Positions 7,231 through 45,976 of a stretch of DNA of 52,354 bases are shown here, in pieces; position 1 is the stretch's first letter, and each line of letters opens with the position of its first letter. Position numbers and translations under genes: made by a program. The notes beneath the pieces were generated by a model. The model did no database searches. It was not told where the DNA came from and saw nothing but the letters and a program-made list of their open reading frames with translations. This DNA comes from Nemertoderma westbladi (taxonomy: Eukaryota > Animalia > Xenacoelomorpha). The DNA is taken from the NCBI GenBank assembly GCA_032718475.1, contig JAUCBJ010000713.1:1-52354 (forward strand), given 5' to 3'.

Positions 7231-7231
7231 C

Positions 7232-8810
7232 TCGTAGCATTCTTGTGAATGTGCCATCCAGAGATTTGGTGTCCTCAGCAGTTAGAGCCCAGCATGGACT
7301 CCCATAGAGGAGTACTGGAACTACTGCTGCTCTAAATAATCGGACCTTAAGTTTCCGATTAATTCTCGGTGACTTCCAAATCCTGGAAAGCCTATTCAAG
7401 GCTGCCCATGCCTTTCCCTTACGTATTCGAAGGTCCTCACCTGACTTCCGGATCCATGATCCCAGGTAACAGAAGTCGTCCACATGCTCAAGCATACCAT
7501 CCTTTGAGCTTATGCTCATCCGATCAGAGACTTGCTGAGGACTTTTAAAGTTAACTGTCAGAATTTTGGTCTTTCTGGAGTTAATAAAAAGACCAACACT
7601 AGAAGCAGCATGTTCTAATGAGCTGAGGAGCCGTTGGGGTCCCTCTAATGATTCTGAGAATACTCCAAAGTCATCAGCAAAGTCTAGATCAGTTAGGTAC
7701 TTGGCAGGATTTCCTCGACTTCTGGAGCCAGTAGGTGGAGTTACCATCACCCCATCATCATTATGATGATCTAAGGATATAGTAGAACATAGTCAACCAC
7801 AATAATGAACAAGAATGGTGCAAGTGTGTCTCCTTGGAGGACCCCCCATAACACTTCAAATGGTTCTGTGTCACCATCAACAGTAGACACAAATGTTGTC
7901 GAACCATCGTATACTGATCTGATTGCTGCAATAATTTCATCAGAAATCCCATATAATGAAAGTATGCTAAACATACGTGAGCGAGAGACTGAATCAAAGG
8001 CCTTGAAGAAGTCAACAAAGATAACAGCCAGATGCCTGTCTTTCTTTTTTGATAACTCTTCAATTATCCTTCTAAGTGCCAAAATGGGCTCCATGGTCCC
8101 ACGACCTTTACGGAACCCATTCTGATTTCCACGGAGCAGTCTCTCAATGGGATCCCTGATGCGATTTAATAGAATCCTATTGTATAGCTTTGCAGCAATC
8201 GAGATCAATGAGATTCCCCGAAAGGAACCATAGAGTGTTAGGTTGCCCTTCTTGGAAACTGGCACCAACTTATTTGTTTTCATTTCTTGTGGGACTCTTG
8301 TTGTTCGGTACATGTCTACTATGATGGGATAGATGAGCTTTAAACACTCAGCTATTTTAAAGACCTCAGGGGGAACACCATCTACTCCACTGGCACGATT
8401 GGTCTTAATGCTCTTTGCAGCAGCCTTCACTTCTGCAAAGGAGATATCGCCAATGGGAATATCTGGGAGTACAGACTCAGACACTTTTACTTCTATAAAG
8501 TTATCAGGCAATACCCTGTCATTATTGAGGAGCTTTTCAAAGTGGGCCTTCCAACCATTGAGGCGATCGGCTGGTGATTCAGCCTTAACCTTGGTGGTTA
8601 GTTGGCTTTTCCGCCCAGTAAGCAGATTGATCGATTTCCATGCCTGGGGTGATTGCCTGCTGTCGTCAGCATCATTGATGGCATCAACCTGTTGGTTTAT
8701 TAGCTCCTGTAGATTAACAGAGTACTGCCTGTGTGAACAGTGTTCAGGGACCTAGATGCAGCCTTAACTGCATTCTTGGCCGCTGTAGTCTGTTTGAATC
8801 GGGACATTCT
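7232..8810 (-). mobile_element. RTE-clade LINE remnant B (reverse transcriptase)
   Basis: RASGVDGVPPE, FRGISLISIAAKLYNRILLNRI, NQNGFRKGR, FVDFFKAFDSV, GVLQGDTLAPFLF, LDFADD, FCYLGS. Frameshift near 7760. Confidence 0.9.
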
Positions 8811-9444
8811 TTACTGCGTACCTATCTGGGTATCTATCCCAAATATTATCCATTACTGGTATTACGAAAGTTAATCAATCAGCTAGAAGAGTTGTATGTT
8901 TATTAAATTATTTATCTAAACGGAACATTGCTTTAAACATTGTATTTATTTTTACACTTTGAAGTGGTGCAGGTGCATAATGTAGTAAATGGTAGTGGTA
9001 GAGCGGCTATAGAGCACCCGCATCGATTGGAAGAACAGGCGCAGAACAATTACAAGATATATAGTTTTAAGGATCGAAATTGGGGCAATGGATGAGACGC
9101 CAGGATCCGGTATCAGTTTATCATTGATCGCCATCCAACCAAACTTGTTAACAGCCAACAGTGGAGGTGCAGGATCATCAGCAGCTCTCCACAAAAGAAC
9201 TTGCTTACGAGCCCGTTTTACATGTTGTACGGCGGCACTCTGTGTGGGGGGAAGGTTGAATACTTTAGGGTGTTGCTTCTTTGAAGTGAATAGCCTATGT
9301 CGAAGTTCATTCAGAGTATCCGATATGCCACCACCATAGATAGAGGTGTAGTTGTAAATTTACAGCACCCATTCCGCATAATTTAATGGATTTCAAATCT
9401 GACTTCGAAATGCGAGGAAAAGATATGTAATTTGGAACTCCTCC

Positions 9445-10705
9445 TGTAAAAGCTTCTGTGGGATATAACTGGCCCCTTTTGCTTCGCAATCCAGTTTCCC
9501 CCCAGGCGCTGGAATACTCTAAAAAGGTTCTCTAACTGTATATATATTCCCCTCGCCCGCAAGGTACCGTTACAGGTGTTTTAACGGACATAAAAGTCAT
9601 TCTGCTATATACGTGTTTTGGCGGACATGGTAAGGCAAAAAACCTGCAATGCACCAACTACCTTTCACAGCTTAGCCGTGATGATTCATATTACGACATC
9701 TAACAGCTGGTTGCTGACATGGAAACAGCCATTGGACGCATGGTTCTTTGTTTGGCTTGAGCCAATCAGAGCGATTTTTCCTGTCGACGTGTAGCTTTTC
9801 GGCCGATCATAAGGAGAGTGTTCAGTCTTACTGTTTTTACTTGATACTTTGTTGTTATTGCTGTCTAAGCCAGAAACACCGGCTCTAGAGCACCGGCTTT
9901 TTGGGAAGAACTCTAGTAAAACTGCTTAAATTATCGAAAGTATAAACTGTTACCAAACTAATCTCACTAATCGAACGAACTCACTAACTCACTTAATTTA
10001 ACTGCATTAATCATATTGTTTGTACTGTTATTTACCGTCAGTTATTAATTGTACCTATTTGTTGATAGAAATATTGCTCTTTGGATAATACGGATAAATC
10101 ACCCAAATTCCCAATTTTCTTGATACACTACAGGTTAGAGAGACCGGCTATACATAACAATTGCGATTTATATTAATGTGGTGTGTATTGAATCCAATGT
10201 TATTTAGCAGACCCTACGTGAGTCAATTGCTGCTCTCTTTATGTGTGATCAAATATACTGACGGTCGGCAGAATAGTGTGTATGATTGTGATTGGTAACA
10301 AAGTATTTCCTAAAGAATACGCTTTATACTTTAATCATAAGCGGTATCGTTGCGTTTTAGTATAAGTCTTAGTTCTGTTTAAATAGATAAAGCGCCACGT
10401 CCTAAAGGAACTGTTAATATTTCCCGAAAGCCAATAATATCTGTCAGGAATTAATTATTAACGATCTATCGAATAATACAGTAAGTTTACGCTGCAACCT
10501 TACACTGCAATAATAAAATTTAAGCATCCGAATTCAGCCTCCCGGGTGTAGATCCATCGGGTGAATGATCGCGCATGGGCTGACTTCGGCTAATGTTTTG
10601 TGTATTAGCATAAAATATTGTAGTATGCTAAATGTGTTTTAATTAACTAAAAGAAATATAAATTTTGGCAGGTTAAACTGCTAAAGGTCTTCAAAAGCGC
10701 GAACA
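9445..10705 (+). repeat. 5' LTR (TG...CA)
   Basis: Starts tgtaaaagcttc and ends gcgcgaaca. Contains a CCAAT box (~9763), an Inr-like ttcagt (9821) and AATAAA (~10512). Confidence 0.95.
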
Positions 10706-10718
10706 GTAACAGTTTATA
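10706..10718 (+). other. Candidate self-priming primer-binding site
   Basis: gtaacagtttata directly follows the LTR and is the exact reverse complement of tataaactgttac at 9941-9953. No TGG-type tRNA PBS is present (first TGG is ~57 nt downstream). Confidence 0.6.
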
Positions 10719-11054
10719 GTCTTATTGCAGTAGGCAATAAGGTTGCAAAATACCGTAGTGACTGGTAAAACTGAACCGGTACTTTGTAGGTCAGTAGGCC
10801 TAACTGTCATCACCGGTACCGGTACTGCTGTACAAGTACATTTAGTATTATTCGATTTGATTATTGTATACTGGTAGGTCTTAGTACTTAATCAGGGACT
10901 GCAGCCCTGAATTTTTATTGAGATTTTACCTATTTCTGTCGGTTTTATTTCCTAGTAGGCTAATATTGAGCAGAAGGCGTGTGACCCTGCTCAGATTGTT
11001 CAGATAATTGTAGGCTGAGCTGCTGTCTGACTGTTGTTGAGTTTGGAGAGATTA

Positions 11055-11575
11055 CGGCGTGTGTAGAGTTTGTCTGATAAAGTGCCGTTAGTAAGTTGGG
11101 GCAGCCATATGCGGTAAGGTCAATCCCCTCTTAAAGAATAAGTCGTACTACCGTGTTAGAACGCATACTAACTAACAGTTTCAGAGTCTGCATATACTGT
11201 AGTTTATCTAGGCTTGATCGTAGTCTGCCAGTGTTTTAGCCTGAGTTTGTTTGTGTGGTCTGTTCAGGTACCGTAATAGTTATTACTTAAATATTTGTAG
11301 GCTGGATTGTTGTCTAGCTATTTTTAGGTCTGAAGGGATTGCTGCGTGTGTAGAGTTGGTCTGATCAAGTGCCGTTAGTAAGTTGGGGCAGCCATAAGCG
11401 GTAAGGTCAATCCCCTCTTAAAGAGTAAGTCGTACTACCGTGTTAGAACGCATACTAACTAACAGTTTCAGAATCTGCACATACTGTAGTTTGTTTAGGC
11501 TTAATAGTAGTCTGCCAGCGTTTGGTTTGTATTTGTTTGAGTATTCTGTACGGGTAGCGTAATATTTATTATTCA
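11055..11575 (+). repeat. Tandem duplication with a ~287-bp period in the element leader
   Basis: The block gcgtgtgtagagtt...agtgccgttagtaagttggggcagccat...gtagtctgccag begins at 11057 and again at 11344. Confidence 0.9.
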
Positions 11576-12881
11576 GAGTTTATGCGATTATTCGCAACAT
11601 TCATGTCCCCAAGTTTATTCCTACAGTAATTGTGCTTGTTATACATACCGTTATAGTTAAACTAACCCCGGTACTACATCAGGGCTGCTTGGCGTAGGTA
11701 AAGACTGACGACTTTGTGCTTCGGTCACTCCAGCAGATGCCGTGGTTCTTTTAACTGTTCAAGTATATTTAACTACTGATTATTTGTTATACCGGTACTT
11801 GTACCTAATTTAGGGTTTAGTGTACAGTGCTTTCCGAAGTAATTAGTGTAGGCAGTATATTTGTGTTGTAAAGTGGTTGATAGGCACATTCGTTAGCTCT
11901 ATTAGCTTCTGGGTAGGAACAATCCGTGATACATAACGTAGTACCTATAGCGATACGGTTATAGGTCGTCAGGCGGTGGTATTTTCCTATCTGGACAGTA
12001 CAATATATTTACTACTTATTATTTCAAATACCGTAGTACCCTGTCCGTTGTAAGAACCAGAATTCTAACCCTTTGTTAGGCTGGTTTGTAGACTTCCTGT
12101 AAAATTACCCTAAAAATTTCGTACGTAATATTTTGTTGTGTTTAATTAGAGAATTAATCTCACCCGTATCGTAAGTAATTTGTAGTATTAAGTAACTTAG
12201 GTAAATTAGAATTATCAGTTTTAGTGTCAAATAAATAGCACTTCACTGAGAGGCGTTCAGCTTCTGTGTAGTGACTCCCCCAGAAATAATAACATTTATT
12301 TCAAATATTGACAAAAACCCATATAAACGGGTATATAAATATTATAAATCAAATCAAACGATTTATAAATAGTAGGCCTGTCATACAACAACTAGGTCTT
12401 CATATCAGTTGGACTACTGCTTAAATAACGGTAATAAAGTAAGTTAAAGTAACCAAGTAACCCTAAAATATTCAGAAATTCAATTATTCTAAAATAATTG
12501 ACATACCGGTATTTACCATAGGCTTATTATATTTATTCGATAAATTTAGGCTGAAATCATACCGGTACTCTGTAATTAATTCTAGTCCAGAATTATACTT
12601 ATATACTATAAGTGTAAGCTGTATACCGGTATTCACGATAGGCCTATTATATATTTATATATATCTGTGCTAAATTTATATACCGGTACCCTGTGACAAA
12701 CCTAGTTTACAATACTTATATATATATTATAAGCATACCGGTATTCTAATATATTATATATATATCACGCTACACTGAGCAGCAGTATCGGTAATTAATT
12801 ATTAGGCTAACAGTGATACTGAATTACTAGACTTACTTTAGCTGTATTTATAGCCGTAGGCATTCAACTGTGTAAACAAAC

Positions 12882-15800
12882 ATGTCTGACACAAAAAGGG
12901 CACTGTCAGATAGTCTTTTGGAAGGTGTTAGAATGAGTCGTCGACTTGGACAGTGTCTTGAAAGGAGAGAAGACAGAAAAGAAGCGGAAAGAAAAGTAGC
13001 AGCGACAGAAGCAGAAAGAAAAGCGGCAGAGGCAGTGGCAGAAGCAGAACGGAAGACGTCTGAAGCGACTATCCAACTAGAGCTGGAAAACCTTCAGGCG
13101 AAACAAGATTACTTGAAGAAACAAACCAGAAGACTACCTGTGCCCAGTAGGACTGTTCCCGAGTCCGAACCCGTCCTGGACGCCGAGCGAGGTATCAAGA
13201 ATTTATCACCCGTCGTCTCTCGCTCGCCCGCTACTACGTTGGCGACTCCCGCTTCGGCGGTTGAGTGGGTAGCTGAGGGACGACGGGAGATGGGTCTCCT
13301 GCTCGAGCAGCTGAGGGAACACTGTTTGTGCTCCTCTCAGCAGGTCAGGGAAATGGAAGAGACTGTTCAGCAGCTCAAGGGAACAGTAAGGGAAAGTAGG
13401 TTAGAGTTGCAAAAAGTGCAGCAAAGTATCGCACTAGAATGCGACAAATTAGTCAACCTACAAAAGGGAATACCAATAACCCCTGTAACAGTGTGTCAGC
13501 CTGTTAGGTCTGAAGTATTACATGCGCAAGGTGTGGAGCCTACACGCATCTATACTGCTAGTGAAGTAGAAACTCCTATAGCAAACCCTATTAAGGGTGA
13601 TTATACGCCTGTTGTTAATGACATTCCCAATAGACCTGATAATAATCCGAGAAATTTATATACCGATAACTCGATATTCAATAACACGATGGCCCAAGAA
13701 AGTTTTACGCGTCAAATGGCTAGAACCGAAGCCCGTCAAGCGGTAAAGGTTGGAGAGATAGTCAAGTTTAATGGAGATGAGATGAAATGGTTACCTTTTA
13801 ATGAATATTATAAAGATAACATACAGAACTCTGTGTTATCCAACGGAGAGAAACTTAGATTCCTCATCGAGTGCTTGGAAGGACCTCCCAAGTCAATGGC
13901 GTTAAAATTTATTGGACATCCAGATGGATTAAGACAAGTTTGGGATACACTAAACATCAGGTATGGTAATAGGAATAACATAGCTAGGTATTTATATGCG
14001 AAATTAATGGCCCCCCGAAAGTTTCTTAGCAGCGGGATTATAGAGTTTTCCGATGAGATTCAGGAGATCTGTAGACAACTAGATTGGTTAGGTAAGTCTC
14101 ATGAATACCAGAATTCTATGGTTGTAGGAGCCTTAGCATCTACTTTGCCCAAGGGTGGAGTAGGTACACGCTGGGACAAGAAGGTGTTATATACGATGGA
14201 ACAACAACAACGAGACCCTACCATGGCTGATCTCATGTCATTCTTGGATGGCGAAGTGAAATTACAACTCCTAAAGCAATCCAGAGAGAAAACACCGGAA
14301 AATAAGGTAAGTGAGAAACCCGTTTCTAGGAGAAGAGTAACACCGGTGTGTTATACTGATGACGGCGAAAGCCAAGCTTCTCAAGAAGAAGACAGCGGGA
14401 AAGACACCGAGAAATTTTACTATGTTAACAAGACCTCAAAGGACGTAAGTAAATCTAAAGCTCGAACCCATGACAGGAGAGAACAGGTTGCTAAGACTCC
14501 TCTTCAGTTTCCTAACAGAGTACACGGAAGAAAGCCCGAAGAAAGAACTAGAGTGCATAACGTCACCCAAAATAAGGTGAGTAACATTAAACCCAACTGT
14601 GCGCTGTGCGACGGGCCCCACCGTTTGAGTGCGTGTGCGGAATTCCTAAAGAAATCCTTGGTAGACAGACGTGAAGTCATGTGGGATAAGCGGTTATGCT
14701 ACAATTGTCTCAGACGCGGACACCAGCGGCGAACCTGTTACTCCGACATAAAGTGTGCAAAGTGCGGTGCGAAACATCACATCTTGTTACAAAGTGAATT
14801 CGAACGAAACAGCCCGAGTCAGGTAAGTGAGCCCAAATCACATGTCCAATTCAGTGATGTGAACGACACTGACCAAAGTTCTGAGTGGGAAGGATTCTAT
14901 ACGGACGAATTCTCCGACGCCAACGAATCCTGTTACCTAATAAATACCGCAGTGTATCGAGCACTTACTTACGAAAAGGACACCGACAATGAGTTCCCCC
15001 CAACTACCTTTGACAAACAACCATCTTGGAAAGTTCCAACTTCCAACATAGGAATAAGAGAATTTCCTGTAGTGCAAGTGAGAGTTCATGGTCTCTACAA
15101 GAGTTACATAGTGAACGCCCTACTTGACTCCGGCAGCACAGGAACATTCATCGATCAAGAACTAGCCGAAGATATCTTTGCTGGACAACCCAAGTTCCGG
15201 ACTAAATTGAATATGTCAGGAATTATGCAGGTTTGGAAATCTACCCTAACGGCAGATTACTATGTAGGTGAGTTGTCCACCCCCCAGGATAAATTAGGAG
15301 CACAAAGTATAAGGTCAGTAAAAATGGTGGCTATAAAGAACTTCGCTACTACCCAAGCAGACCTTTATAACTGGGACGAGGACGAGTGCATCCAACATCT
15401 TGAGATACCTCGATTCCAAACCGATTATCCTGGAGTGCAAATCCTCATCGGCCAAAACGCGCATGAGGCGCTCGAGACATTGGAGAAACGGCCTGCTCAA
15501 CCGCAGCCATTACAAACTTATGCGGTAAGAACTAGAGTAGGTTGGTACTTTACTGGCCCTTCCCGCAGAACTCTTGAAGAAAGATTGCCACAAGACCGGC
15601 TACTTCAAGTAAAGGATTGGGAAGAGGGGAGCAGTGAAGTGGACGAACCCACTGAGGTAACACCATACTCCTCAGATAATGATGATATTAACTCCAATGT
15701 AGATCAATGGAGACATTGCCTTGGGACGATTAATCCAGCCGACATCGCTTCCAGGGGAGCAACTCCTCAAGAACTGATAGATACTCCAGGCTGGTTAGGT

Positions 15801-16031
15801 GGATCCGACTCCTTAAGTAAAGAAGAAGAAGAATGGCCTCCTCATCTTACCACGGCAGAGAGTAGACAGGCCAAGGGAGCGGAGAAACTAACACAACAAC
15901 TCAATCGCCCAGCTGGTCGTTTATGTTTACTGGAAAGAGACCGAAAACTGTCCGGAAACTATGGAAGGCAAGATACTCTTCCTACGACCACTTCCCTAAT
16001 CCGACAAATATCTAGGGACTCTATAACGTAA
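12882..16031 (+). CDS. BEL/Pao gag-protease polyprotein with vestigial pol fragments (1049 aa)
   Basis: N-terminal coiled coil, DUF1759-like gag core (KFNGDEMKWLPF...EKLRFLIECLEG), three zinc knuckles (CALCDGPHRLSAC, CYNCLRRGHQRRTC, CAKCGAKHHILL) and protease ALLDSGS...ILIG...TRVGW. Followed only by WRHCLGTINPADIASRG and NRPAGRLCLLE. No YxDD or DDE motif. Confidence 0.92.
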   Translation: MSDTKRALSDSLLEGVRMSRRLGQCLERREDRKEAERKVAATEAERKAAEAVAEAERKTSEATIQLELENLQAKQDYLKKQTRRLPVPSRTVPESEPVLDAERGIKNLSPVVSRSPATTLATPASAVEWVAEGRREMGLLLEQLREHCLCSSQQVREMEETVQQLKGTVRESRLELQKVQQSIALECDKLVNLQKGIPITPVTVCQPVRSEVLHAQGVEPTRIYTASEVETPIANPIKGDYTPVVNDIPNRPDNNPRNLYTDNSIFNNTMAQESFTRQMARTEARQAVKVGEIVKFNGDEMKWLPFNEYYKDNIQNSVLSNGEKLRFLIECLEGPPKSMALKFIGHPDGLRQVWDTLNIRYGNRNNIARYLYAKLMAPRKFLSSGIIEFSDEIQEICRQLDWLGKSHEYQNSMVVGALASTLPKGGVGTRWDKKVLYTMEQQQRDPTMADLMSFLDGEVKLQLLKQSREKTPENKVSEKPVSRRRVTPVCYTDDGESQASQEEDSGKDTEKFYYVNKTSKDVSKSKARTHDRREQVAKTPLQFPNRVHGRKPEERTRVHNVTQNKVSNIKPNCALCDGPHRLSACAEFLKKSLVDRREVMWDKRLCYNCLRRGHQRRTCYSDIKCAKCGAKHHILLQSEFERNSPSQVSEPKSHVQFSDVNDTDQSSEWEGFYTDEFSDANESCYLINTAVYRALTYEKDTDNEFPPTTFDKQPSWKVPTSNIGIREFPVVQVRVHGLYKSYIVNALLDSGSTGTFIDQELAEDIFAGQPKFRTKLNMSGIMQVWKSTLTADYYVGELSTPQDKLGAQSIRSVKMVAIKNFATTQADLYNWDEDECIQHLEIPRFQTDYPGVQILIGQNAHEALETLEKRPAQPQPLQTYAVRTRVGWYFTGPSRRTLEERLPQDRLLQVKDWEEGSSEVDEPTEVTPYSSDNDDINSNVDQWRHCLGTINPADIASRGATPQELIDTPGWLGGSDSLSKEEEEWPPHLTTAESRQAKGAEKLTQQLNRPAGRLCLLERDRKLSGNYGRQDTLPTTTSLIRQISRDSIT

Positions 16032-16574
16032 TAACATATGGAGTGGGCGTGTGACTATATCATTTTATATTTGTTTTTATTTTATATTTATGTATGTATT
16101 ATTATGTAATTTTATTATAATCGTTTTCTTTAATTTTATTTAGTAGAATGTTATTTTAGAATATTTGGTAAATTAGTGCAATATATTAGTGTTTATTACG
16201 TATTTAATTACTTACAATATATTTAGTGCGACGGCAAGAAGTAATTATTTTCTCTTTCCTTACTGTCCGTATTATATTATAAATGCGAGACTATAGTAAG
16301 ATGACATGTCAGTACTTCTTAAAGTACAATAAAGCCACTACTATATTTAAGTATTATTGGTAGGCAGAGTATTAGGAATGCAAAGTTCAGATCCTCGTGT
16401 CTCGGCTAAACCAAGCTCTGGGTAGACCTTGGAAACGACTTGCCTCTTCACACTGACATTGCTTCGTGCGATATTGCTCTTCTATCTTATAACAAATAAT
16501 ACATATAGTAGCGTGATGTCCCTCTAACAGTAGCGTAAATCGCAAATAAATCTGTTAAACTTTTGACCATCTGT

Positions 16575-16850
16575 AATTCTAGTCGATTAAGATATCGTGG
16601 CACCCACCGATATACTTGAAAGACAAATTCTAGAATCAGTGGTTAACGTCCCCAGACAAGTTCTGGAATAAATCGGTGCCCATCCTAAATATTAATTTAA
16701 TATTTATTAAAATCTGTAAAATTCAGATCCGTTAACAATTCTAGTCGATTAAGATATCGTAGCACTTACCGATACTCTTAAAAGACAAATTTCATAGAAT
16801 TAAGGATCCTATGTCCCCAGACCTGCTCTGGAATCAAATTGTATCAATTT
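16575..16850 (+). repeat. Diverged ~110-bp direct repeat pair (period 162)
   Basis: aattctagtcgattaagatatcgt...aagacaaatt...gtccccagac...tctggaat starts at 16575 and again at 16737. Confidence 0.85.
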
Positions 16851-17462
16851 AACATCAAATAATAAAATTCACGGGAATAAATTTAAATTCATATTCGAAT
16901 GAATTTCATAAATTGTCATTTGTGCAATTTATAACATTCCCAAAATTCCAGTAATTAATAGATCATGGGAGCGGAGATTCATATTGAGTGTACTAGAGTG
17001 CGAGAATCTCCAATATATAGTCAATAGCCGATAAAATTTATAAAATCATGCATAAAGAGGGTATTGACAACTAAAGAATTACTATTAAATAACATCCCAG
17101 ATCTGTATGCATGAGAATTACCCTAATTCTACCGCTAGTTTTCCATAATGTCACCATGGCAACACCCACGCTAGAATTAGAAGCAAGTTAAAGGAACAAT
17201 AAAAAGCTTGCCCCATTGCGTAGCATAAGAGTATATATAGCGCACTATTAGTATCCAAGGATACATAGTAATAACGTGACATTCTGGAAGACACTGACTA
17301 ACGGACAAATGGCATGCATGTGTGCAGTAAGCAATGATTGTATGGAATTTGTGCGTTTATAGGTGAATGTTACTACTAAAGTGTGTTTACAGTAGCTAAT
17401 CGCAATTGTAAAATAGCCCTAACTCTACCGAGATAACCTCAAGTGGATTCAAGCCTTTGGGA

Positions 17463-17607
17463 CGGACAGTGGTGGGACTTGTGCCGGTTATCGTTGTCGT
17501 GCTGTTGCTACATGTTGGCGTAAACACCGCGACAACGGTACATCGGCGCTGAGAAACCCACTGTCCGGGGGCAAAAAGCCTAGTAGGCAGCGACGCCCGC
17601 TTGCCTA
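17463..17607 (+). other. Predicted long GC-rich RNA hairpin plus small hairpin
   Basis: cggacagtgg (17463-72) pairs with ccactgtccg (17558-67). Inner stems are gtgccggt/atcggcgc and tcgttgtcgtg/cgcgacaacgg. Second stem taggcagcg/cgcttgccta at 17584-17607. Confidence 0.75.
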
Positions 17608-17650
17608 AAATATTAGCTTATATTGATATTAACAAACTCAGATAGCAGAT

Positions 17651-18049
17651 ATGACGGAATTGATAGAAGATGACCTTGGTATTAGAGAGCGATATACTCT
17701 ACCTTTACAAGCGTTTGTGGATAGCTTGATACGCGGTGAAGCCGATCCGACTATTACTGAGGACGATGGTCGTTATATCGAACCGCCGATGTCCCAGGAA
17801 CAACTTACGCGTGAAGCGGACTATAGAAAATTCACCGCTCGCTATACGAATCGCAATGGTACGTATATGGACTTCCTAACTACCGGCCATCCTATCGATC
17901 TACATGATACGGACGATGTATACACCGAAAGGGAAATGGTTCTATTTAAATATCATACCCAGCGGAGTCGTAACGATAAACCGAGAATAGATCACGAAAA
18001 TTATATTCGTAACAGACTGGGAAGACGAACCCATATGTTTAGAATCTGA
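17651..18049 (+). CDS. Extra ORF X1 of the LTR element (132 aa, unknown function)
   Basis: ATG start, coding-like composition, no recognised motif. Overlaps the X2 reading frame. Confidence 0.6.
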   Translation: MTELIEDDLGIRERYTLPLQAFVDSLIRGEADPTITEDDGRYIEPPMSQEQLTREADYRKFTARYTNRNGTYMDFLTTGHPIDLHDTDDVYTEREMVLFKYHTQRSRNDKPRIDHENYIRNRLGRRTHMFRI

Positions 18050-19100
18050 AGAGATTCAGCCCCCCACGTCTCGGAGTAGCGATAGCGACTACATATTGGA
18101 ATGGTATCAAGGTCCACAGTGTCTCACTGCGTACGATTATCGCCATGCCAACTATGTTTCTAGACAACGTTGTCGGCTGTGCGCATCGAGAGACCATATT
18201 ACGTCTATGGACACCAACGATCTTTGTTCCTATTTCCACGAGCAACCGTCGATGGAAATCTATTGTGCATATTGTCGGCTTAATAATTTGCACATTTTTG
18301 CTGTCTGCCCCCAATTTATGACTCAATGCCATCATTGTCAATTAAAAGGACACGCCAGCTTTGATTGTCCCTTTAACCATGATTTAGAGAGCGTAGATGA
18401 AATGATTGTACTACGTTATATCAGAGCTTGGGAAGCGAACGCTGATTTACATTGTGATTCACGCCATCGCTATTATCCTGGACGCGCCTACGAAGGAGTT
18501 TATGCGTTCCATCCATATTTGTTTGCCTCCGTCGAGCAGAAATCGCGCCTATCAAGTTACGAGCTACTGAAGCGCGTCGGAGAATGTATTTCAACCAAAT
18601 TCGTACGCAAATTTCTCAGGAGTGTTAATCCTAGCGACCTTCATTCCTATAACTTAATCAATCATATCCGTCAGGATCCGGACTATGGAGAATTGTTTGT
18701 TAACTCACACCCTGAGTTACAGGAAGTATATCGACGGCCTTACGAATACCGAGCCCGCGAACGCGAGTTGGAAAGAACCATTAAACCAAGGAAGTTTCTA
18801 ACTGCCTATGGTCCACCCACGGCCCTCGTTCAGACCACTCGTAAAGGACCCGTAAGAGCGGCTGTCTTGAAACGAGCTCTCAAAGCCGTTAGACCCCTCT
18901 CCCCGGACGTTGATGTCAATCAACCCGGTACTTCGACCGGCGGATATACCGATCGCAATCCCATACCTTCTGATGCAATCATATTGCACCCTTCACCCAG
19001 GAGTTATAGCCCTCCTCGTAAAGTGGCTCGCCCCAAAGAGAAAAGGACTCTTGCTAGCTTTAAAAAACTGCGTAAACGCCGTCCGCGCAAGAAAGACTAA
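17991..19100 (+). CDS. Extra ORF X2: multi Cys/His zinc-finger protein with a basic C-terminus
   Basis: Frame is open from 17991 (ORF track start is TTG at 18096). Motifs CRLCASRDH, CAYCRLNNLHIFAVC and CHHCQLKGHASFDC (CCHC). Ends in an NLS-like KKLRKRRPRKKD. True start uncertain. Confidence 0.75.
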   Translation: MTKIIFVTDWEDEPICLESEEIQPPTSRSSDSDYILEWYQGPQCLTAYDYRHANYVSRQRCRLCASRDHITSMDTNDLCSYFHEQPSMEIYCAYCRLNNLHIFAVCPQFMTQCHHCQLKGHASFDCPFNHDLESVDEMIVLRYIRAWEANADLHCDSRHRYYPGRAYEGVYAFHPYLFASVEQKSRLSSYELLKRVGECISTKFVRKFLRSVNPSDLHSYNLINHIRQDPDYGELFVNSHPELQEVYRRPYEYRARERELERTIKPRKFLTAYGPPTALVQTTRKGPVRAAVLKRALKAVRPLSPDVDVNQPGTSTGGYTDRNPIPSDAIILHPSPRSYSPPRKVARPKEKRTLASFKKLRKRRPRKKD

Positions 19101-19170
19101 CTGTTTAGAGTATTTACGTATATTAGAAACTGTGATTTTTGTATATTTATAGACTCAAATCCCATTTTCT

Positions 19171-19178
19171 GGGAGCGG
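19171..19178 (+). other. Polypurine-tract-like site
   Basis: gggagcgg immediately precedes the TG of the 3' LTR. Confidence 0.7.
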
Positions 19179-20439
19179 TGTAAAAGCTTCTGTGGGATAT
19201 AACTGGCCCCTTTTGCTTCGCAATCCAGTTTCCCCCCAGGCGCTGGAATACTCTAAAAAGGTTCTCTAACTGTATATATATTCCCCTCGCCCGCAAGGTA
19301 CCGTTACAGGTGTTTTAACGGACATAAAAGTCATTCTGCTATATACGTGTTTTGGCGGACATGGTAAGGCAAAAAACCTGCAATGCACCAACTACCTTTC
19401 ACAGCTTAGCCGTGATGATTCATATTACGACATCTAACAGCTGGTTGCTGACATGGAAACAGCCATTGGACGCATGGTTCTTTGTTTGGCTTGAGCCAAT
19501 CAGAGCGATTTTTCCTGTCGACGTGTAGCTTTTCGGCCGATCATAAGGAGAGTGTTCAGTCTTACTGTTTTTACTTGATACTTTGTTGTTATTGCTGTCT
19601 AAGCCAGAAACACCGGCTCTAGAGCACCGGCTTTTTGGGAAGAACTCTAGTAAAACTGCTTAAATTATCGAAAGTATAAACTGTTACCAAACTAATCTCA
19701 CTAATCGAACGAACTCACTAACTCACTTAATTTAACTGCATTAATCATATTGTTTGTACTGTTATTTACCGTCAGTTATTAATTGTACCTATTTGTTGAT
19801 AGAAATATTGCTCTTTGGATAATACGGATAAATCACCCAAATTCCCAATTTTCTTGATACACTACAGGTTAGAGAGACCGGCTATACATAACAATTGCGA
19901 TTTATATTAATGTGGTGTGTATTGAATCCAATGTTATTTAGCAGACCCTACGTGAGTCAATTGCTGCTCTCTTTATGTGTGATCAAATATACTGACGGTC
20001 GGCAGAATAGTGTGTATGATTGTGATTGGTAACAAAGTATTTCCTAAAGAATACGCTTTATACTTTAATCATAAGCGGTATCGTTGCGTTTTAGTATAAG
20101 TCTTAGTTCTGTTTAAATAGATAAAGCGCCACGTCCTAAAGGAACTGTTAATATTTCCCGAAAGCCAATAATATCTGTCAGGAATTAATTATTAACGATC
20201 TATCGAATAATACAGTAAGTTTACGCTGCAACCTTACACTGCAATAATAAAATTTAAGCATCCGAATTCAGCCTCCCGGGTGTAGATCCATCGGGTGAAT
20301 GATCGCGCATGGGCTGACTTCGGCTAATGTTTTGTGTATTAGCATAAAATATTGTAGTATGCTAAATGTGTTTTAATTAACTAAAAGACATATAAATTTT
20401 GGCAGGTTAAACTGCTAAAGGTCTTCAAAAGCGCGAATA
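19179..20439 (+). repeat. 3' LTR (TG...TA)
   Basis: Same length as the 5' LTR. Only two differences were spotted by eye: aagaaatata/aagacatata and terminal CA->TA. Confidence 0.95.
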
Positions 20440-20766
20440 CCTCCAGAGCTCCCTGTGGACGTCTGCAGTAACTCCATAGCTGTTGAGTGGGAGTCACGAA
20501 GACCATTTGGGGTAAATACATTTAGGTCAAAGTTATCAATCCACGCGCTAATTGGTTGATGGTTTTTGTTAAAATCATCCAAAAATCGCCAGATGAAAAA
20601 CCACGTTCTCCTGTAAATTTTGCAGCAGACTTTCTAAAACGTAGCACTTCATCATAGCTGGCAATATATCCTTGTGAATGTAAGAAATCTATAAGTTCCC
20701 GGCTTCCAAATAGATAATGAAGCTTTATAGCCATCCCAAGTGTTGTCTGGTTATACACTCCACTTA

Positions 20767-20935
20767 TTAGTGCCTGTATAGACTGCGCCGTCAAGGATAC
20801 AGGTTTGTACTTTGCCTTAGTGCCTGTATAGACTGCGCCGCCAAGGATACAGGTTTGTACTTTGCATTAGTGCCTGAATAGCTTGCGCCGCCAAGGATAC
20901 AGGTTTGTACTTTGCATTAGTGCCCGTATAGACTG
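20767..20935. repeat. 50-bp tandem repeat, ~3.4 copies
   Basis: Unit ttagtgcctgtatagactgcgccgccaaggatacaggtttgtactttgca at 20767, 20817 and 20867, partial at 20917. Confidence 0.95.
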
Positions 20936-23468: not shown

Positions 23469-23927
23469 TTATCGTTTTCTTGAGTTCTTTGAACGGTTGC
23501 GTTTTCTTCCCCTAGACTTTGATTGCACACACAGACAGTTACTTATTTCTACCTTGCTGGTCCCTGATAAAGTTTTTCTTATCCCGGCTTCCGGACTATC
23601 ACTTTCACGCCGATAAGCTTTGGGTGTGCAGTAACCTGTACTTAGTGCAACCATCCATTTGTAGACTTGATTGAAGTGCCTTTTCGAGAGATGCGGTCCG
23701 CAAACTCTATACATAAATCCCGCAAACTGTGTGTAATCCCCCTTGAGGTCCAAGTAGCGTTTTATGAGCTGATTCGTCTTTGTTATTCCCTTCCTTTCCA
23801 TCCGCTGGCAGAAAATCGGACCAATACCAGGTACCTTGATGAGTTTGGTTTTGTAAATCTTAGACATCCCTGTTGCTCCATAATCCAACTCCTTTTTCGT
23901 GGATTTGTTTCGCTTTGTTCTACCCAT
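23469..23927 (-). CDS. Barrier-to-autointegration factor (BAF)-like protein with basic extensions, 152 aa, intronless
   Basis: VPGIGPIFCQRMERKGITKTNQLIKRYLDLKGDYTQFAGFMYRVCG aligns by eye with BANF1 [46 protein letters not shown]. Confidence 0.75.
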   Translation of the reverse strand: MGRTKRNKSTKKELDYGATGMSKIYKTKLIKVPGIGPIFCQRMERKGITKTNQLIKRYLDLKGDYTQFAGFMYRVCGPHLSKRHFNQVYKWMVALSTGYCTPKAYRRESDSPEAGIRKTLSGTSKVEISNCLCVQSKSRGRKRNRSKNSRKR

Positions 23928-24653
23928 TTTAAATTGAAAGATTTGAGTTTATGAAATGAATTTGAACTGGTTCCCATAAGATGCTACGATTTTTAAGTTA
24001 CTTACACTACTAGACTAACTACAACCGCTTAAGTGAACTAAATCTACCTACATTTTCCGTATATTCCAGAATATTACAGCTAGAGCTACCACGGATACAA
24101 CTTTTAAAGAAAAATAAATAGAAATAATATTCAATATGAAAGCCAAGAAAACATTAGAATTATATCGATTTACGTCTCAAAATCTACACCGTAGGTAATA
24201 TCTACTTAGACAGTATTTTGGCAGATATTGCATATTGCATTGGTTATACAGTATGAATGACGACTGTATTATTGGTGGAATTTCAGCCGAGTCTTCGAAG
24301 TTAAACAGAATAGGGCCTAAGTTATAATATAGTTCTTAATTTTGGTGAAACCCACATTCGCTTACTTATTGTGTGTACAACATAATAAGTATTGCGATCA
24401 CGTGACCCCTAGGCCTACTGCCCGTCTCTGTTAGTACATAATGTTACATTGTTAAAATTATTACTATTATTACTACTATAACCTATGCTACTGTATACAC
24501 CATTAATTAAAACTCTTATTATGATATTTAATTACTGTATTTTACCTATATCAACGTACTGTATTAACTATAGAATCAATAATAAACATACTGATACTGT
24601 ATAATAATGTTAATTAAATGAATTCGTCAATAGCGCTCGTGATTATTACATCA

Positions 24654-26423
24654 TCAGTGCATTGAATATGTGCTGGACACAAAGTCCACACATCTATGAA
24701 CATCATCATCAGGCCCCTGGTCTCTATTACCTGCCCCTCTATGTATATCGCTGAGAACATCAGGGAGTGGTTTTCCTTTCGTTTCCGGCAGAAACAGAAC
24801 ACCGATTGCGGCGGCCAAACACAAAACTCCGTAAAGGATAGGTGGAAGCGCTCGCCAACTGTGTCCGATGCTAATCAATGGGATTATCGCTGAAGCTATT
24901 AGCGATAATATCATAGAAGTCGACATCATTCTGGAACGGACCTCGGTCGGATAAAGTTCTATCGAATACGTAACCACCATGGCCAATCCGCAACTAATAC
25001 CAGTTTTTCCAGCCATAGCAACCGTTGTTTTTACCCAACCACCTGCGATATCGTCGGGGATCCAGGCAGTGGATAAACAAGAAATTCCAGTAAAAATCAA
25101 AGTTCCGCACATTGAAGGCTTCCGTCCCAGTCCGTTTTGCAAGAAAAATCCTATCGCGGAGCCGACAATTTCAGTTGCGCCAGAAATTATGTTCGTAACA
25201 AAAAAATCTGTAGACAGCGCTGATACTCCTAGGACAAGCCCATACCATGTAACTGAAAGGGCAACCCAAACAAGGCACATAATAAGAATACGTTTCATTA
25301 ATTCAAAATGATACAAAATCTTGTTCAAAATCAAATTGTTGTGAATTACTTTTGGTTTGCCTATCGAAGAGCTTTCTCTATATTGCGACGATGTTAAATA
25401 TCTAGTAATACCTCCTATAGTATCATCACCTATTTGTTTATTATTAATGCGAGCAATTTTCTGTATAACATTCAACGCTTGCTTCCATTTCCCTGTGGTT
25501 GCCAACCATCTTGGCGATTCAGGCCAGACAACATAGAAGAACAGACACATGAAAGGTAATAGACACTGAGATAAGTGAAAATAATACCATGGTAACCGTC
25601 GGAATATGTACGAACAGACAGTGGATAGCATCATGCCTACTCCAATAAATGCTTCAAAAGAGACACCAATAAAGGTTCTGTACTCATAGCCAACGAGTTC
25701 CATGGCCAGGATAGTCCCAATCATAAGGGGGGCTGAATAACTCATTCCCAAAACTATTCGTTGAAATATAAAATAATGTATATTTCCCGGGAAAATAAAC
25801 ATGAAGGATTGACCCACACTTTGCAACAAGAATGCGAGAAATATGGCTTTCTTCCGTCCCCATATATCTGAAATCGCGCTGAATAATCCAGCTCCTGGTA
25901 TTATTGCGAGAATAAATGCCGTTTTCGCAAATTGAAACTCTACATCCTTTTCACAAACGAAATTAAATTCCATGAGGTAGGTGTTTGTGAAGACGGACTG
26001 GTCAAATGACCAGCCATGACGACATTTGATTCGATCCTTATTTTCTACCTGAACATAATTGTTATTTTCAACATTATAGTCGTACATTAGGCAAGATTCT
26101 AAAACACCATCACCATCTTTGGGAATGAATTCTTCAATGTTTATTGATTGATTCTCTCCAAGTTTATCAACAATATACGAAACATCGCAGTGGTAACCGG
26201 TGTGCGCGCTAAGAAACACCATTTCCATGATCAGTAGTGTTGGAATTGACGCACATAATAACACAATAGTGCAATAAACAACAACCCATTGATAGCAGCC
26301 AAATGCACCTATGAGAGGCCAAATATCATCATAAGTGTGAATATGTTTATTTTCATCAACGAATTTATTATTATCTGATCCATTTCCACCTAATTGTGTA
26401 TCGCCATAATTAATTGTTTTCAT
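24654..26423 (-). CDS. SLC22 / organic cation transporter family MFS protein, intronless
   Basis: IGAFGCYQ, Cys-containing first loop (C..GWSFD), SDIWGRKK, ELVG..YR, PESPRWL, ELYPTEVRS, LPETKGKPLP. First ATG at 26423 (ORF track extends to a TTG at 26450). Confidence 0.93.
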   Translation of the reverse strand: MKTINYGDTQLGGNGSDNNKFVDENKHIHTYDDIWPLIGAFGCYQWVVVYCTIVLLCASIPTLLIMEMVFLSAHTGYHCDVSYIVDKLGENQSINIEEFIPKDGDGVLESCLMYDYNVENNNYVQVENKDRIKCRHGWSFDQSVFTNTYLMEFNFVCEKDVEFQFAKTAFILAIIPGAGLFSAISDIWGRKKAIFLAFLLQSVGQSFMFIFPGNIHYFIFQRIVLGMSYSAPLMIGTILAMELVGYEYRTFIGVSFEAFIGVGMMLSTVCSYIFRRLPWYYFHLSQCLLPFMCLFFYVVWPESPRWLATTGKWKQALNVIQKIARINNKQIGDDTIGGITRYLTSSQYRESSSIGKPKVIHNNLILNKILYHFELMKRILIMCLVWVALSVTWYGLVLGVSALSTDFFVTNIISGATEIVGSAIGFFLQNGLGRKPSMCGTLIFTGISCLSTAWIPDDIAGGWVKTTVAMAGKTGISCGLAMVVTYSIELYPTEVRSRMMSTSMILSLIASAIIPLISIGHSWRALPPILYGVLCLAAAIGVLFLPETKGKPLPDVLSDIHRGAGNRDQGPDDDVHRCVDFVSSTYSMH

Positions 26424-26894
26424 TTTATTTAATTGAATTGTAATATACAAAATTATTAATTGGAGAACTGAGCTACTATGCCCAACACGTAGTAAATGTG
26501 TCTAGTTTGAAGAAGAGAAGGTTACCCACCCTTCAAAAGTTGTCTGTAAATGAGATTGAAAGGAGGACGACACATAGGGCCGGAATGACAAGATTGGAGG
26601 AAAGTCAGACCTACACGGAACCACCACCATTTAATTGTATTTCATTAGTAAAATTCACAGAGCGGGACAGGCCAAAAATAAACAACACATAAATCAGGAT
26701 TAAATAATAGACAATGAGTTAGTGCGTTTAGAAGGATCTTTTTCTTAGTGACCAAAAAATAATTGAATATGAATAGTCGCGTACATTTCGGGCAACAGCC
26801 CTTTATCATCTCAATTCAGTTATTGCATGTGTATATAAGTACAGAACAAAACTACTACAGGACACTACTACAGGAGGTTATTCCTTACCGCTAA

Positions 26895-27419: not shown

Positions 27420-30400
27420 ATGGCTAAATATCCCACCCCAACGTTTTTGGATGTTAATGCAGAAGACCTTGCACTTGAATTTGGCGAATGGCGACAAGCC
27501 TTTGAGTTCTGGGCAGATGCGATAGACTTGCGTGGTGAGGGACAAAATAGACAAAAGCAGGTTGGGGCCCTTATGACCTGCATCGGTAAACAAGCTCAAA
27601 AGATCGCACTTCAGAATTTCAGCTATACAGATGACAGACCACGAACCCTCGAGAATTTATTGGCAGACTCTTCTCAGCTTATTTTGCTCCCCGGCGAAAT
27701 TTGCTTGTGATGAGACACCGCTTTATGTGTCGGCGACAACAATCTGGGGAATCTTGTGCCGAATATTTTACTACCCTCCGGCAGTTGGCGGGTCACTGCG
27801 ACCTTGATAGAGAGACACCTGAAACACGAATAAGGGATACCTTCATATGTGGCATCCGGGATGATGAGTTGCGGCGTCAACTCCTCCAGCAACCTTCTGA
27901 TTCCACTATTACTGACATTAGGAACCTGGCGGTTGCTTATGAAGCTGCCACATCTGGGCATAAAGAGTTGAGTACAGAACAGAAAAAAGAGTATTTTATA
28001 CTCCAGCATCCATTAGTGGTGATGTTTTGGCTGTCTCAAGGTCATTTTCTCCCCATCGTGCCACCACTGGTAAGTATTATGCTGCTGCTCCACTGGTTCG
28101 TGAACGTGGTATGGATGTAGCTAGGAATCTACCACAACAACCCAGTCAACCTTTGCCTAATTTTGTTCGTTCATGTCGTTTCTGTGGTGGTAGTCACCAA
28201 AAAGGCCACTGTCCAGCATATAATTCCTTTTGCCAAGATTGCGGAGTTCGTCACCACTTCCGTAATTCCCCAATTTGTAAATTTATTGTTTCAGTTTCTA
28301 GACAAGGCTTAGATCGGTATACACAACAGACTATGCGACATTCCACTGGTAGAGTTCACCAGGTTGAACACTTTCCCTCTGACCTCTCTGTGGTGGAATT
28401 AGATGAACCCTACGAATCCGATGGTGAGGTAACTGAATCAAGTTTATCCTATTATGATGTCAACACAGTTAACCTATATAAAATGGTAAATTCCACCCCC
28501 AGTCAACTTATTGAAAAAAACTTATGAAAATTGGAAAATATCACTTTTCGTATCAGGTCCTACATCTGGTCAGAATATCATCTTTCTTGTTGACACAGGA
28601 ACTTATCACTCTATTGTTCCAAGCAAATTTATTGGACCCAGCATAATTGAACCCTTGCAGGGTGAGTTGCTCGGAGGATTTATGTCTTCATCTTCACTGC
28701 CTATTATTGGCAAGGCAACAGTTCGATTGGCATTTGGCAAATGTGAGACAACATCTACCATCTTTGTTGCCAAGAATGCACCATTCGCTTTGCTTGGCCA
28801 AAGGGATATTGAAGATTTACAATTAGTCAGTCGAAACTTCAGTGAAAATAAACTGTATCCTTCAGGTAGGGAAATAGAAAACACTGCAGGTGCTAGTCCT
28901 CTAAACATTGTCAATGCATTCTTACCTCCAATGGATTCACCTGAAATTGAAATTGTACTTAAGCCTGGAATAGTTCCACTTCAACAGCCCCCGTGGCGCA
29001 TTCCCTTCGGCATAATCGAGGAAGTTAAAAGTGAGAGCGCTAAACTTTGCGATGAAGGTGTTATCGTTAAAGTTCCTAACGATGATCCACCCAGTGAGTG
29101 GGTTAGTCCCATGGTGATCACACGCAAACCCACTGGGAAATTGAGGTTATGTCTAGATCTACGTGCTTTAAACAAAGCTGCGGTTAGGACCCGTGTAATG
29201 ATTCCTACACCTGAGGAACTATTTGCTAAAGTGGAAGGTAGCAACTATTTCTCTAAATTGGATGCTTACTCAGGCTTCCATCAATTATGGCCCACTGAGA
29301 AATCATCCAGACTAACAACATTCGAATTGCCATTCGGTACATTTCGTTATATTCGCTTACCATTTGGTGTTTCCTGTGCACCAGAGAAATATCAACAGAC
29401 AATGGTTGATGTTATCCATGATATTAATGGTGCCATTGTCCTTGAAGATGACATCCTTATATACAGTGCAACACGTGAAGGCCATGATCAAATTTTGATG
29501 AAGGTTAAGCAACGTTGCATTGATCGCAATATTAAACTTAATGTTGATAAATGTGAAATTGGCAAAACAGAAATTACTTACTTGGGTCATGTCTTGTCTT
29601 CATCTGGACTGAAACCAGATCCAAAGAAAGTTGAAGCGATTTCAGCACTCCCCCCCACCAACAACTACTGCAGAATGTCGTAGATTTCTGGGAATGGCTA
29701 CCTATATCTGGCTAAATTTGTACCCAATTTCAGCACTATTTCATCACCATTACGACAATTATTATGAGGGAATGTTCTGTTTTCATGGACATCCACTTGT
29801 GACTCAGCCTTTCAGAAGATAAAATCTTTACTATGTGACTCCCCAGTATTGAAATATTACAATGTCAACCATGAAACCATGGTCCAATGTGATGCCTCTC
29901 CATATGGCCTTGGCACAGCTCTTCTCCAATGTGATCCATAAACCAAGCAAACATGGCCAGTAGCATTTGCTAGTAGATCACTAACATCTGCTGAGCAGAG
30001 GTACTCCCAGATAAAAGGGAGACATTAGCTATTGCCTATGGTGTTTTGAAATATAAACAATATCTTCTAGGACTCCATTTCACAGTCCTATCAGACCATA
30101 AACCCTTAAAGTCGATTTTCCTAAACCCATTAGATGAGTGCCCACTTCGGATTACCCGTTTTCTCATTCTTCTACAGCCATATTCATTCACAGTTGAATT
30201 TATTACTGAGTGGAAAGTCAAATCTTCTTGCAGACACATTGTCTCGTGCTCCAATCCCAGGTCCTAATGAGCAGCCAGGAAACCAACAGGCCTTGAACTT
30301 TGATCCCTTTGTTAATGTCATTCTCGAATCACGTTTTGTCAATATTCACCCAGTAGCTCAGGAAACTGGAATATGTCCAGAATTGTCCCCACTGGTTGAT

Positions 30401-31950
30401 AGACTGTTAGACAATTCGGATAACTTCGACAATATACCTTCACCATATTTAGGCAATATTGCTGAACTCTCACTGTTCTTTGTCGATAATCTTCCAGTTG
30501 TGATGCACAGCACCCGCATAGTTATACCGGTGTCCCTTCGATCTCAAATTTTAAAGTTAGCTCATGAAGGCCACCCAGGTATAACAAAAACTACCGAGAT
30601 ATTGAATTCCACAGTTTGGTGGCCCGGAATCACCAAGTCTGCCTCGCTATTAGTGAGCAATTGTCACCCATGTAAACTCTCTCAAGATTTACCATCGCCA
30701 CAGCCTATGCAACAATCTCGTATATTTTTACCATGGGAACGAATCGGGATTGATTGTGCTCAAATAGAGGGCACTAAATGCCTCACTCTTATTGATTATG
30801 GTTCTCGTTATATTGAAGCTACCCCCTTACCTTCTAATAGTTCTAAATCACCCTCCATAATTCGTCAATTGAACTTTATCTTCGCTCGATTTGGCCTTCC
30901 CAGTTCTCTGGTTGCTGATAATGCTGAGGAATTTCGTTCAAGCGCATTTTGGCAGTATTTAGTTTCACTTGGCTGCAAACTTGTTGAAATCTCCTCTAGA
31001 TATCCCCAATCCAATGGGATGATTGAGTGTCCTCACAGGGTTATTAAGAAGATGATGAATGCAACATCAGATGCCCAGAAGGATTCATTCAGTTCTCGTT
31101 TGTCAACTGTATTGTTCACTCTACGAACAACCCCTCACAGGGTGACAGGTGAAGTTCCTTCCCGAGTGCTCTACAGGTTCCTTGGATTGAACCTACAAAC
31201 CCAATTGCCACAAATTCCTCCCCCAGCCGAGCCTCCATTAAGGAAATATATAGAAAACCGTGAGCGCATCGTATCTGACTACAATCGCCGGCATCGATCA
31301 CAACTGTTGGATCCTCTTGAGGTCGACCAAGCTGTCATGGTGAAGAAGTACAATGGCCGAGGTTACAGCTATTTGGGACACCATGTTAAAGAAGTTCGCG
31401 GTGACAAAGTGATCATTCAACCACCTCATGGTGGCCCGCTGATTTCCCGCAATCGCAGATGGCTCCAGCCAGTACACCAAGCCCACTACCATCGGTTTGT
31501 ACCCCCTGCCCACAAACTTCCTCTTCTAACCACCCAGGCTCAACCTGAACTGGTTGTTCAGCAATCATTGCCCACGAATGAGTCTTCACCTGGCGTTCCA
31601 GATGCCCCCCCCCCCCCCCCCCCCCCCCACTCCCAGATGGCCCATTGGATATCACACAATGCCATTATCCCTCCCGTGTACGATCTGCTCCAAAATACTA
31701 TGGGTATGAAAACTAATACGATATTACCAGGACTTGACTCATTCTTTAGGTTTTACATCCGAACTTTATTGTTTGTATATGTACAGTTAGTTGTAGGGAA
31801 GAGAGAGAAAGATGATATATGTGTTACTTTCAGTTCGAAAGAAAGAAAGTAGTGTAGTATATACTACTGGTATTAAATAGGAGTTATCTGTATGTGTTGA
31901 TGGTCTGGTGTACTACTGATTATTATATACCGGTTACCGGCCACACTACA
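27420..31950 (+). mobile_element. Degenerate Ty3/gypsy (Mag-like) retrotransposon gag-pol
   Basis: gag (RRQQSGES...RIRDTFICGI; CRFCGGSH..CPA..CQDC), PR FLVDTG, RT (WVSPMV, LRLCLDLRALN, LPFG, LEDDILI, YLGH), RNase H (QCDASPYGLG, SDHKPL) and IN (HEGH..CHPC, GID, ADN, NGMIE). Several frameshifts and a TAA at 29939-29941. PPT-like 31795-31812 is followed by a TG...CA LTR candidate at 31813-31950. No 5' LTR was found. Confidence 0.92.
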
Positions 31951-45777: not shown

Positions 45778-45976
45778 AAATACAGAAATAGGCCACCTAC
45801 CGGTAGCTCTGTTAGTCTGTAGCTGTTGCTAATGCAGTACCTACTTCAATACAGCAGTAATAACCTGATACAGTGATAAATGTGAAGAATTCTACACCCT
45901 ACGCCAGTACGCTGTAGTGCTGTACGGTGTGCTCAACTTCTGAACTTAGCGGCCCGGTACCAAGAAAAACAGTAAA

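Follow-up and report, generated by a model that had tools for sequence, protein, structure and literature searches.

The locus raises the question of why a transposable element that has lost its polymerase should carry a further gene next to its 3' long terminal repeat, and what the product of such a gene might do. The window, i.e., the whole stretch of DNA that was analysed, comprises 52,354 nucleotides of Nemertoderma westbladi (contig JAUCBJ010000713.1), and all coordinates below refer to it and to its forward (+) strand, unless the reverse strand (-) is indicated. Between a remnant of pol and the 3' LTR of a young BEL/Pao-type LTR element located at 9445-20439, there are two open reading frames, ORF X1 (ATG at 17651, stop at 18049) and the X2 frame (17991-19100, 369 codons); we denote their product X. 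We propose, with a probability of roughly 45%, that X is a nuclear RNA-binding accessory protein, comparable to Rev or to CERV of the Cer1 element, which would protect or export the unspliced RNA of the element.

The element is bounded by two LTRs of 1261 bp each (9445-10705 and 19179-20439), with two mismatches between them, and is flanked on both sides by CCTCC, a target site duplication of 5 bp (9440-9444 on the left and 20440-20444 on the right); therefore, the insertion is young. The 5' LTR has the TG...CA ends, whereas the 3' LTR ends with TA where CA is expected. CCAAT at 9762 and the initiator-like TCAGTC at 9822 in the 5' LTR would constitute a promoter, and AATAAA is present at 10512. 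The LTRs slightly exceed the range of approximately 0.2-1.2 kb that is quoted for Belpaoviridae (PMC8742986). By-eye reading found no TGG, the start of the primer binding site (a tRNA-Arg/Gly type is expected in Belpaoviridae), directly after position 10705. The LTR is followed by a long non-coding leader of 2.2 kb (10706-12881) with internal repeats, including a 242-bp duplication (10995/11282), and an acceptor-like AG at 12853, 29 bases before the gag ATG; a spliced RNA may be a source of gag as well. A short purine-rich tract, GGGAGCGG (19171-19178), precedes the 3' LTR.

The first long reading frame, ORF1 (12882-16031, 1049 aa), encodes gag and an aspartic protease, followed in frame by what remains of the end of a BEL RNase H region. 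In Pfam, ORF1 matches DUF1759 (E 1e-13), and the protease and the CCHC knuckles are present but fall below the Pfam cut-off; a search with gag among longer proteins returned no match. The remnant, residues 940-1028, matches the corresponding part of the full BEL pol in L001 (E 8e-8), a pol in which Peptidase_A17 is found at E 5e-40. This is the sole trace of pol, and the domain search yielded no match to RT or integrase domains in the element. The element is a non-autonomous BEL/Pao derivative that has lost pol and kept gag and protease. In plants, non-autonomous LTR elements of the TR-GAG type likewise keep gag and protease, do not have RT, RNase H or integrase, and still amplify. The element described here resembles them in having gag and protease without RT and integrase, but it is an animal element, derived from BEL/Pao, and it has a further accessory gene.

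The X1 and X2 frames show the following features. X1 (17651-18049), likely the N-terminal part of the accessory gene, is mildly acidic and runs for 121 codons up to the break between the frames. The X2 frame, the length of which (at least 369 open codons) was reached in none of 20,000 base shuffles, encodes an acidic linker, three Cys/His clusters, a predicted helical region, a Pro/Ser-rich part and a basic tail. The zinc-knuckle region (18171-18368) comprises two regular clusters and one irregular cluster: CxxC-x4-H-x9-C (18171-18227), CxYC-x5-H-x4-C (18264-18308) and CxxC-x4-H-x4-C (18327-18368). The last two form the tandem pair CxYC-x5-H-x4-CP-x5-CxxC-x4-H-x4-CP (18264-18368), and such a pair was found in none of 200,000 residue shuffles. 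An earlier note on this DNA had listed three clusters including the same tandem pair, and these are indeed present, except that the spacing in the first cluster is x9, not x8. The likeness to the Nanos finger that the earlier note had drawn from this linkage was not borne out: zf-nanos gave no match at E<=10, the PDB search returned no Nanos chain, and the spacing of the knuckle pair of X2 differs from that of the Nanos CCHC-CCHC finger, which we take to be fixed. Similarly, the reported SP/RS-like stretch contains, within 8 residues, just two SP dipeptides and a single RS, and is no RS domain. The basic stretch that the earlier note had read as a nuclear localisation signal is present: the 30 C-terminal residues of X2 include 15 K/R, and the basic tail (19014-19097) is a predicted signal by pattern alone. 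The suggestion that the frames are not env-like also agrees with our results: there is no hydrophobic segment in X1 or X2 (the best 19-residue Kyte-Doolittle values are 0.46 and 0.83, respectively), no signal or transmembrane segment in the X protein, and no N-glycosylation sequon in X2.

Conservation was assessed in sequencing runs. Part of the region 15900-19200 is present in 7 of the 12 listed runs, and copies were compared in four of these, designated runs X1, X3, X4 and X5 (run names that are distinct from ORFs X1 and X2). In each of the four runs, coverage extends to every one of the 30 bins into which the element was divided, and likewise to all 30 bins of the segment 17860-19170. Single contigs with a depth of 7,000-9,000 occur alongside divergent contigs with a depth of 20-40, which suggests an element family of high copy number. 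Among the best-supported 40 of 333 differences, 37 are located in X2 after position 18015; 27 of the 37 are synonymous, 25 are in third codon positions, and none produces a stop codon. When the same 37 differences are read in the two other frames, 9 and 5 are synonymous (the latter with 2 stops); the synonymous fraction expected with a 5:1 transition bias is approximately 0.29. The corresponding counts of synonymous changes are 11 of the 22 listed differences for the gag-protease ORF and four of six for ORF X1 (p 0.057, not significant alone). It should be noted that these rows are the best 40 of 333 and that many come from one divergent contig; thus, they are non-independent, the p-values are overstated, and the counts are no proper dN/dS. 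Despite the overstated p-values, the contrast between the frames in X2 is plain. These results indicate that X belongs to the element family and is under selection, and they support the view of the earlier note that an accessory ORF of a nucleic-acid-binding, non-env type has been kept despite the loss of pol. As a separate observation, a low-depth contig of 558 nt from run X1 matches the RNase H remnant alone (15699-15847) and extends on both sides of it; its source may be a relative with a complete pol, a potential helper.

Two alternative explanations concern the status of X as a single, useful gene. X1 and X2 are in different frames that overlap by 59 bases, and had been described as two ORFs. 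The first ATG of X2 (18207) falls inside the first Cys/His cluster, and for this reason X1 and X2 are likely to be one frameshifted gene. In addition, the loose ends of two single contigs of run X4, at 18013 and 18025, begin at codon starts of the frame of X1, contain no stop over the 30 letters shown, and align with the X2-frame residues that follow; therefore, X1 likely runs into X2 in related copies. The two-ORF arrangement is thus unlikely to be the state of the family, and X1 and X2 are likely a single gene of approximately 480 codons (121 + 361), frameshifted near 18014 in this copy (the approximate place is 18013-18015). It is improbable that the offset represents two products by design, with the dominant subfamily using programmed frameshifting or re-initiation to make X1 as a short protein and X2 as a longer or separate one. 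The frame overlap fits such a design, as do an abundant contig of run X5 (17902-18158), which runs colinearly with the window through the junction, and the interval 17860-18068, which has no indels listed among the differences shown; however, the related contigs stay in the frame of X1 into X2-like residues, the position of the first X2 ATG within a cluster does not suit a separate product, and the depth in run X1 drops approximately eightfold at 18036-18079, a decrease that variation of the junction between copies would produce. The frameshift may be common to a large subfamily. Run X5 also has one-base indels at 18069 and 18371, and many amplified copies may not make the whole protein. Such indels in X2 of some abundant contigs, together with the frameshift in this copy and with knuckles that look like those of a host family, are what could be expected of a passenger, i.e., a captured fragment of a host gene or the gag of a nested transposon that is carried without benefit. 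This is very improbable, because the synonymous excess in X2 is at least that of gag, among contigs that are up to approximately 15-20% apart, X is found along the whole family and has its own likely splice acceptor, and no termini, long repeats or target site duplication flank X. The earlier note had pointed to own termini of a nested transposon, or non-conservation among copies, as signs against an accessory gene; no repeat pair bracketing X was found, and the copies preserve the X2 frame, with an excess of synonymous differences. The idea that X2 is a copy of the gag knuckles of the same element was rejected: the likeness is driven by Cys and His alone (E 0.011).

We next consider how X could be expressed. 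On weak evidence, X is likely read from an env-type spliced subgenomic RNA. Two contigs of run X5 join the LTR (10125/10133) to positions 17431/17450, among the 15 joints shown of 79; the sides of these joints are 22-23 nt, a length range flagged as unreliable, and the type of the run was guessed as DNA. The joints leave the LTR at a likely splice donor, CAG/GTTAGA (10133-10139, the slash indicating the exon end), and reach approximately 17431-17450, next to a likely branch point, CCTAAC, with an AG acceptor (17418-17432). Both joints fit a donor at 10133, and one of them puts the acceptor at 17432, after CCTAAC; the GT-AG intron that fits the joints is 10134-17432, 7.3 kb. The LTR-to-X joints have no depth in runs X1, X3 and X4. 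Among the 12 listed runs, none with the region is recorded as RNA, which is uninformative about expression. The leader of the putative X transcript has no ATG in 9800-10133 and a single 3-codon uORF before X1, the ATG of which (17651) is the first long-ORF ATG downstream of the acceptor. The ratio of the depth in run X5 to that in run X1, per thousand, is 1.55 over the skipped part versus 15.7 over the LTR exon and 24.2 over X, approximately a tenfold difference, and the ratio of run X3 to run X1 is flat (523-658); these ratios are not counted as evidence, because genes cannot be ranked by contig depth and the X region itself served to find the runs. Several other features in this part of the element deserve mention. 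Near-perfect splice donors are found inside ORF1 at 14307, 14577, 14823 and 15268, three of them in repeated KVSE-like peptides; they prompted the consideration of a CERV-like gag-X fusion, which was rejected because no such joint is among the 15 shown of 79. Directly after the acceptor, there is a short hydrophobic open frame without an ATG (17433-17549), which overlaps a small hairpin (17489-17540).

Searches for homologues of the whole protein were negative. No significant full-length homologue of X2 was found in metagenome contigs, among 5.8 billion proteins (of near and shorter lengths), in PDB (with the whole frame as query) or in NCBIfam. The single match to X2 in 1.84 billion representatives, P0001 (E 1.5e-6), was rejected, being a MORN protein with a score summed over eight tandem repeats; two further candidates, L003 (a short low-complexity match) and L002 (a match of 16 residues), were also discarded. 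Likewise, ORF X1 showed nothing significant against Pfam, NCBIfam and PDB (best E 0.14), and an Atlas search with residues 128-270 of X2 returned no usable match. Single-sequence AlphaFold models were unusable (mean pLDDT 37.9 and 42.2), and a Foldseek search with the second of these poor-quality models found nothing at E<=0.001. Neither CERV nor Rev matched X2 among the 5.8 billion proteins, in PDB or in the 1.84 billion representatives, and CERV itself was set against X by description.

A weak signal comes from the knuckles. The top PDB match of the knuckle region (92 aa) is yeast Air2 (E 0.043). The E value becomes 2e-5 with a 41-aa query, but this query was trimmed after the match was known and the score is summed over four stretches of a target with five knuckles; the best single stretch, on ZnK2-3, has an E of 0.65-0.84. 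The likeness to ZnK2-3 of Air2 consists in an x5 knuckle with a canonical CCHC knuckle close behind it, with 14 identities in 38 query residues. As a control, the gag knuckles of the element were searched in the same way, and in this case retroviral nucleocapsid ranks first and Air2 is the last of 20 (E 7.7). The nearest clusters in the Atlas include Air2-like and ZCCHC7 proteins, with a top score of 0.86, which is under 0.9, indicates low recognition and serves as a lead alone. Air2 binds RNA through ZnK2-4, and Trf4 through IWRxY, a motif located between its knuckles 4 and 5 (PMC3384339). The IWRxY pattern is absent from X. Air1, Air2 and ZCCHC7 have five tandem knuckles in addition to IWRxY, whereas X has two or three, is encoded by a transposon and shows no likeness beyond the knuckles. 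Judging from these alignments, the knuckle pair of X has its nearest, if weak, counterpart in the RNA-binding knuckles of Air2/ZCCHC7; X is therefore no Air protein, but it may act through an RNA-binding pair of that type.

These comparisons bear on what X does, and two functions other than RNA export need to be weighed. X could be a surveillance decoy, in which Air/ZCCHC7-like knuckles without the polymerase-binding motif would protect the RNA of the element against TRAMP and the nuclear exosome, or against decay coupled to Piwi, instead of serving as an export adaptor. We regard this as unlikely, with a small but real chance of being correct. The rank of Air2 as the best match of the knuckle region, the opposite order for the gag knuckles, the Atlas clusters and the missing IWRxY are all consistent with a decoy, and the reported participation of exosome adaptors, including dZcchc7, in Piwi-linked decay of transposon RNA (as described in bioRxiv 10.64898/2025.12.16.694471) provides a context for it. 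The low E value, conversely, depends on summation and post hoc trimming, the Atlas scores indicate low recognition, and the number of knuckles differs from five with nothing alike outside them. A more specific version, that a BEL element took or mimicked the host Air/ZCCHC7 RNA-binding knuckles without the polymerase-binding motif and uses them, in a decoy made from the spliced RNA, to hide the unspliced RNA from the nuclear exosome, is doubtful and has a lower chance than either of the other two functions considered here. If true, an animal transposon would encode an antagonist of nuclear RNA surveillance, and the value of this antagonist would be such that a highly amplified family retained it after discarding its own RT and integrase. 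The remaining possibility is slightly less likely than a decoy in general: X would be a packaging or chaperone cofactor, i.e., a second nucleocapsid-like module that selects RNA, or a transcriptional trans-activator of the LTR of the Tat/Tas kind. CCHC knuckles are the nucleocapsid motif, and the X2 knuckle region has weak matches to Copia and MLV nucleocapsids in PDB; the acidic N-terminal part and the basic tail would fit a trans-activator. However, gag already has knuckles, of which X2 contains no copy, and the basic tail points to the nucleus.

The evidence favours, in our assessment, a nuclear RNA-binding role of X over the other proposed functions, and the protection and export of RNA could operate as follows. 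With the likely donor located within the LTR, the full-length RNA would be an intron-retaining transcript with a usable intron of 7.3 kb, and it would therefore have to escape splicing and nuclear retention before it could be packaged. The product of X would bind this unspliced RNA and allow it to survive and to exit the nucleus. X and gag would have been kept while RT and integrase were lost because an element without pol would still need the escape of its RNA, whereas RT and integrase could be borrowed in trans. We infer the nuclear location, the RNA binding and the export function of X by analogy alone.

Known systems offer partial parallels. CERV of Cer1 is a non-env ORF in the env slot that is expressed from a spliced mRNA, has a Cys finger, a nuclear localisation signal and an S-P phosphosite, and is required for export of genomic RNA (PMC10309623). 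The anatomy of X agrees with this point by point (non-env ORF, env slot, Cys finger, pattern-based nuclear localisation signal), but the searches described above gave no match in sequence. Furthermore, Cer1 is an autonomous Gypsy/Ty3 element of C. elegans, whereas the element with X is a BEL element without pol; CERV is described as sharing exons with gag and having a candidate C4 loop as well as a G-like domain (PMC10309623), whereas X, apparently with an ATG of its own, has CCHC knuckles. Env-like genes of BEL/Pao elements, such as those of roo and Tas and the Chuviridae-like glycoprotein in mosquitoes, have been described (PMC8742986, PMC3118150, PMC13524379, each for the cases that it covers); they share the slot, the orientation and the superfamily with X, but they encode fusogen-like membrane proteins, and X has no membrane segment. 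The ORF3s of LTR elements in bdelloid rotifers encode a GDSL esterase or a DEDDy exonuclease and, within the analyses described, show no significant departure from neutrality (PMC5408684); they are thus enzymatic, with neutrality not rejected, unlike X, a zinc-knuckle protein with a synonymous excess. Additional ORFs have also been described for plant LTR elements (PMC7264820). A literature search that lacked Repbase, supplements and most subscription papers revealed no case of a BEL element whose non-env ORF encodes zinc knuckles, which does not establish absence from print. X is a real, selected and apparently undescribed accessory protein, the arrangement of which is of a known kind. Another BEL/Pao element, L001:4853-6802, has a sense ORF of at least 650 codons after the integrase, which is acidic, rich in Ser, Pro and Arg, and without a Pfam match. 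This extra ORF is unrelated to X2 and not homologous to it. Extra ORFs other than env may be widespread among BEL/Pao elements.

The way in which an LTR retrotransposon takes its unspliced RNA past nuclear retention and decay is known for very few elements, and CERV is the sole element-encoded example that our searches found. If the reading of X as an RNA export protein is true, X would be a second, unrelated solution in BEL/Pao, a group whose replication is poorly understood (ICTV profile), and regulators in the style of complex retroviruses would have arisen repeatedly. The retention of X after the loss of pol suggests which functions are not easily borrowed in trans. The apparently strong amplification of the family and the recent date of this insertion make the question testable.

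Several observations were made on the neighbouring sequence in the window. Fragments of an ORF on both flanks of the element, 8952-9359 (-) and 20522-20866 (-), have no Pfam match and look like one degenerate transposon-like gene that was split by the insertion. A fragment of a LINE RT is found at 7771-8751. Three further ORFs were noted: a BAF-like ORF with an extra basic C-terminal tail (23469-23948 (-), SAM_BAF E 1e-6), an ORF for a sugar/organic-ion MFS transporter (24654-26501 (-)), and an ORF for a WD40 protein (45950-46963 (+)), which is presumably BUB3-like; the last two are uninterrupted and apparently intronless. Finally, a decayed element at 27635-31852 (+), which was assigned by eye to a Gypsy-like family, contains pieces of gag, RT and integrase in several frames.
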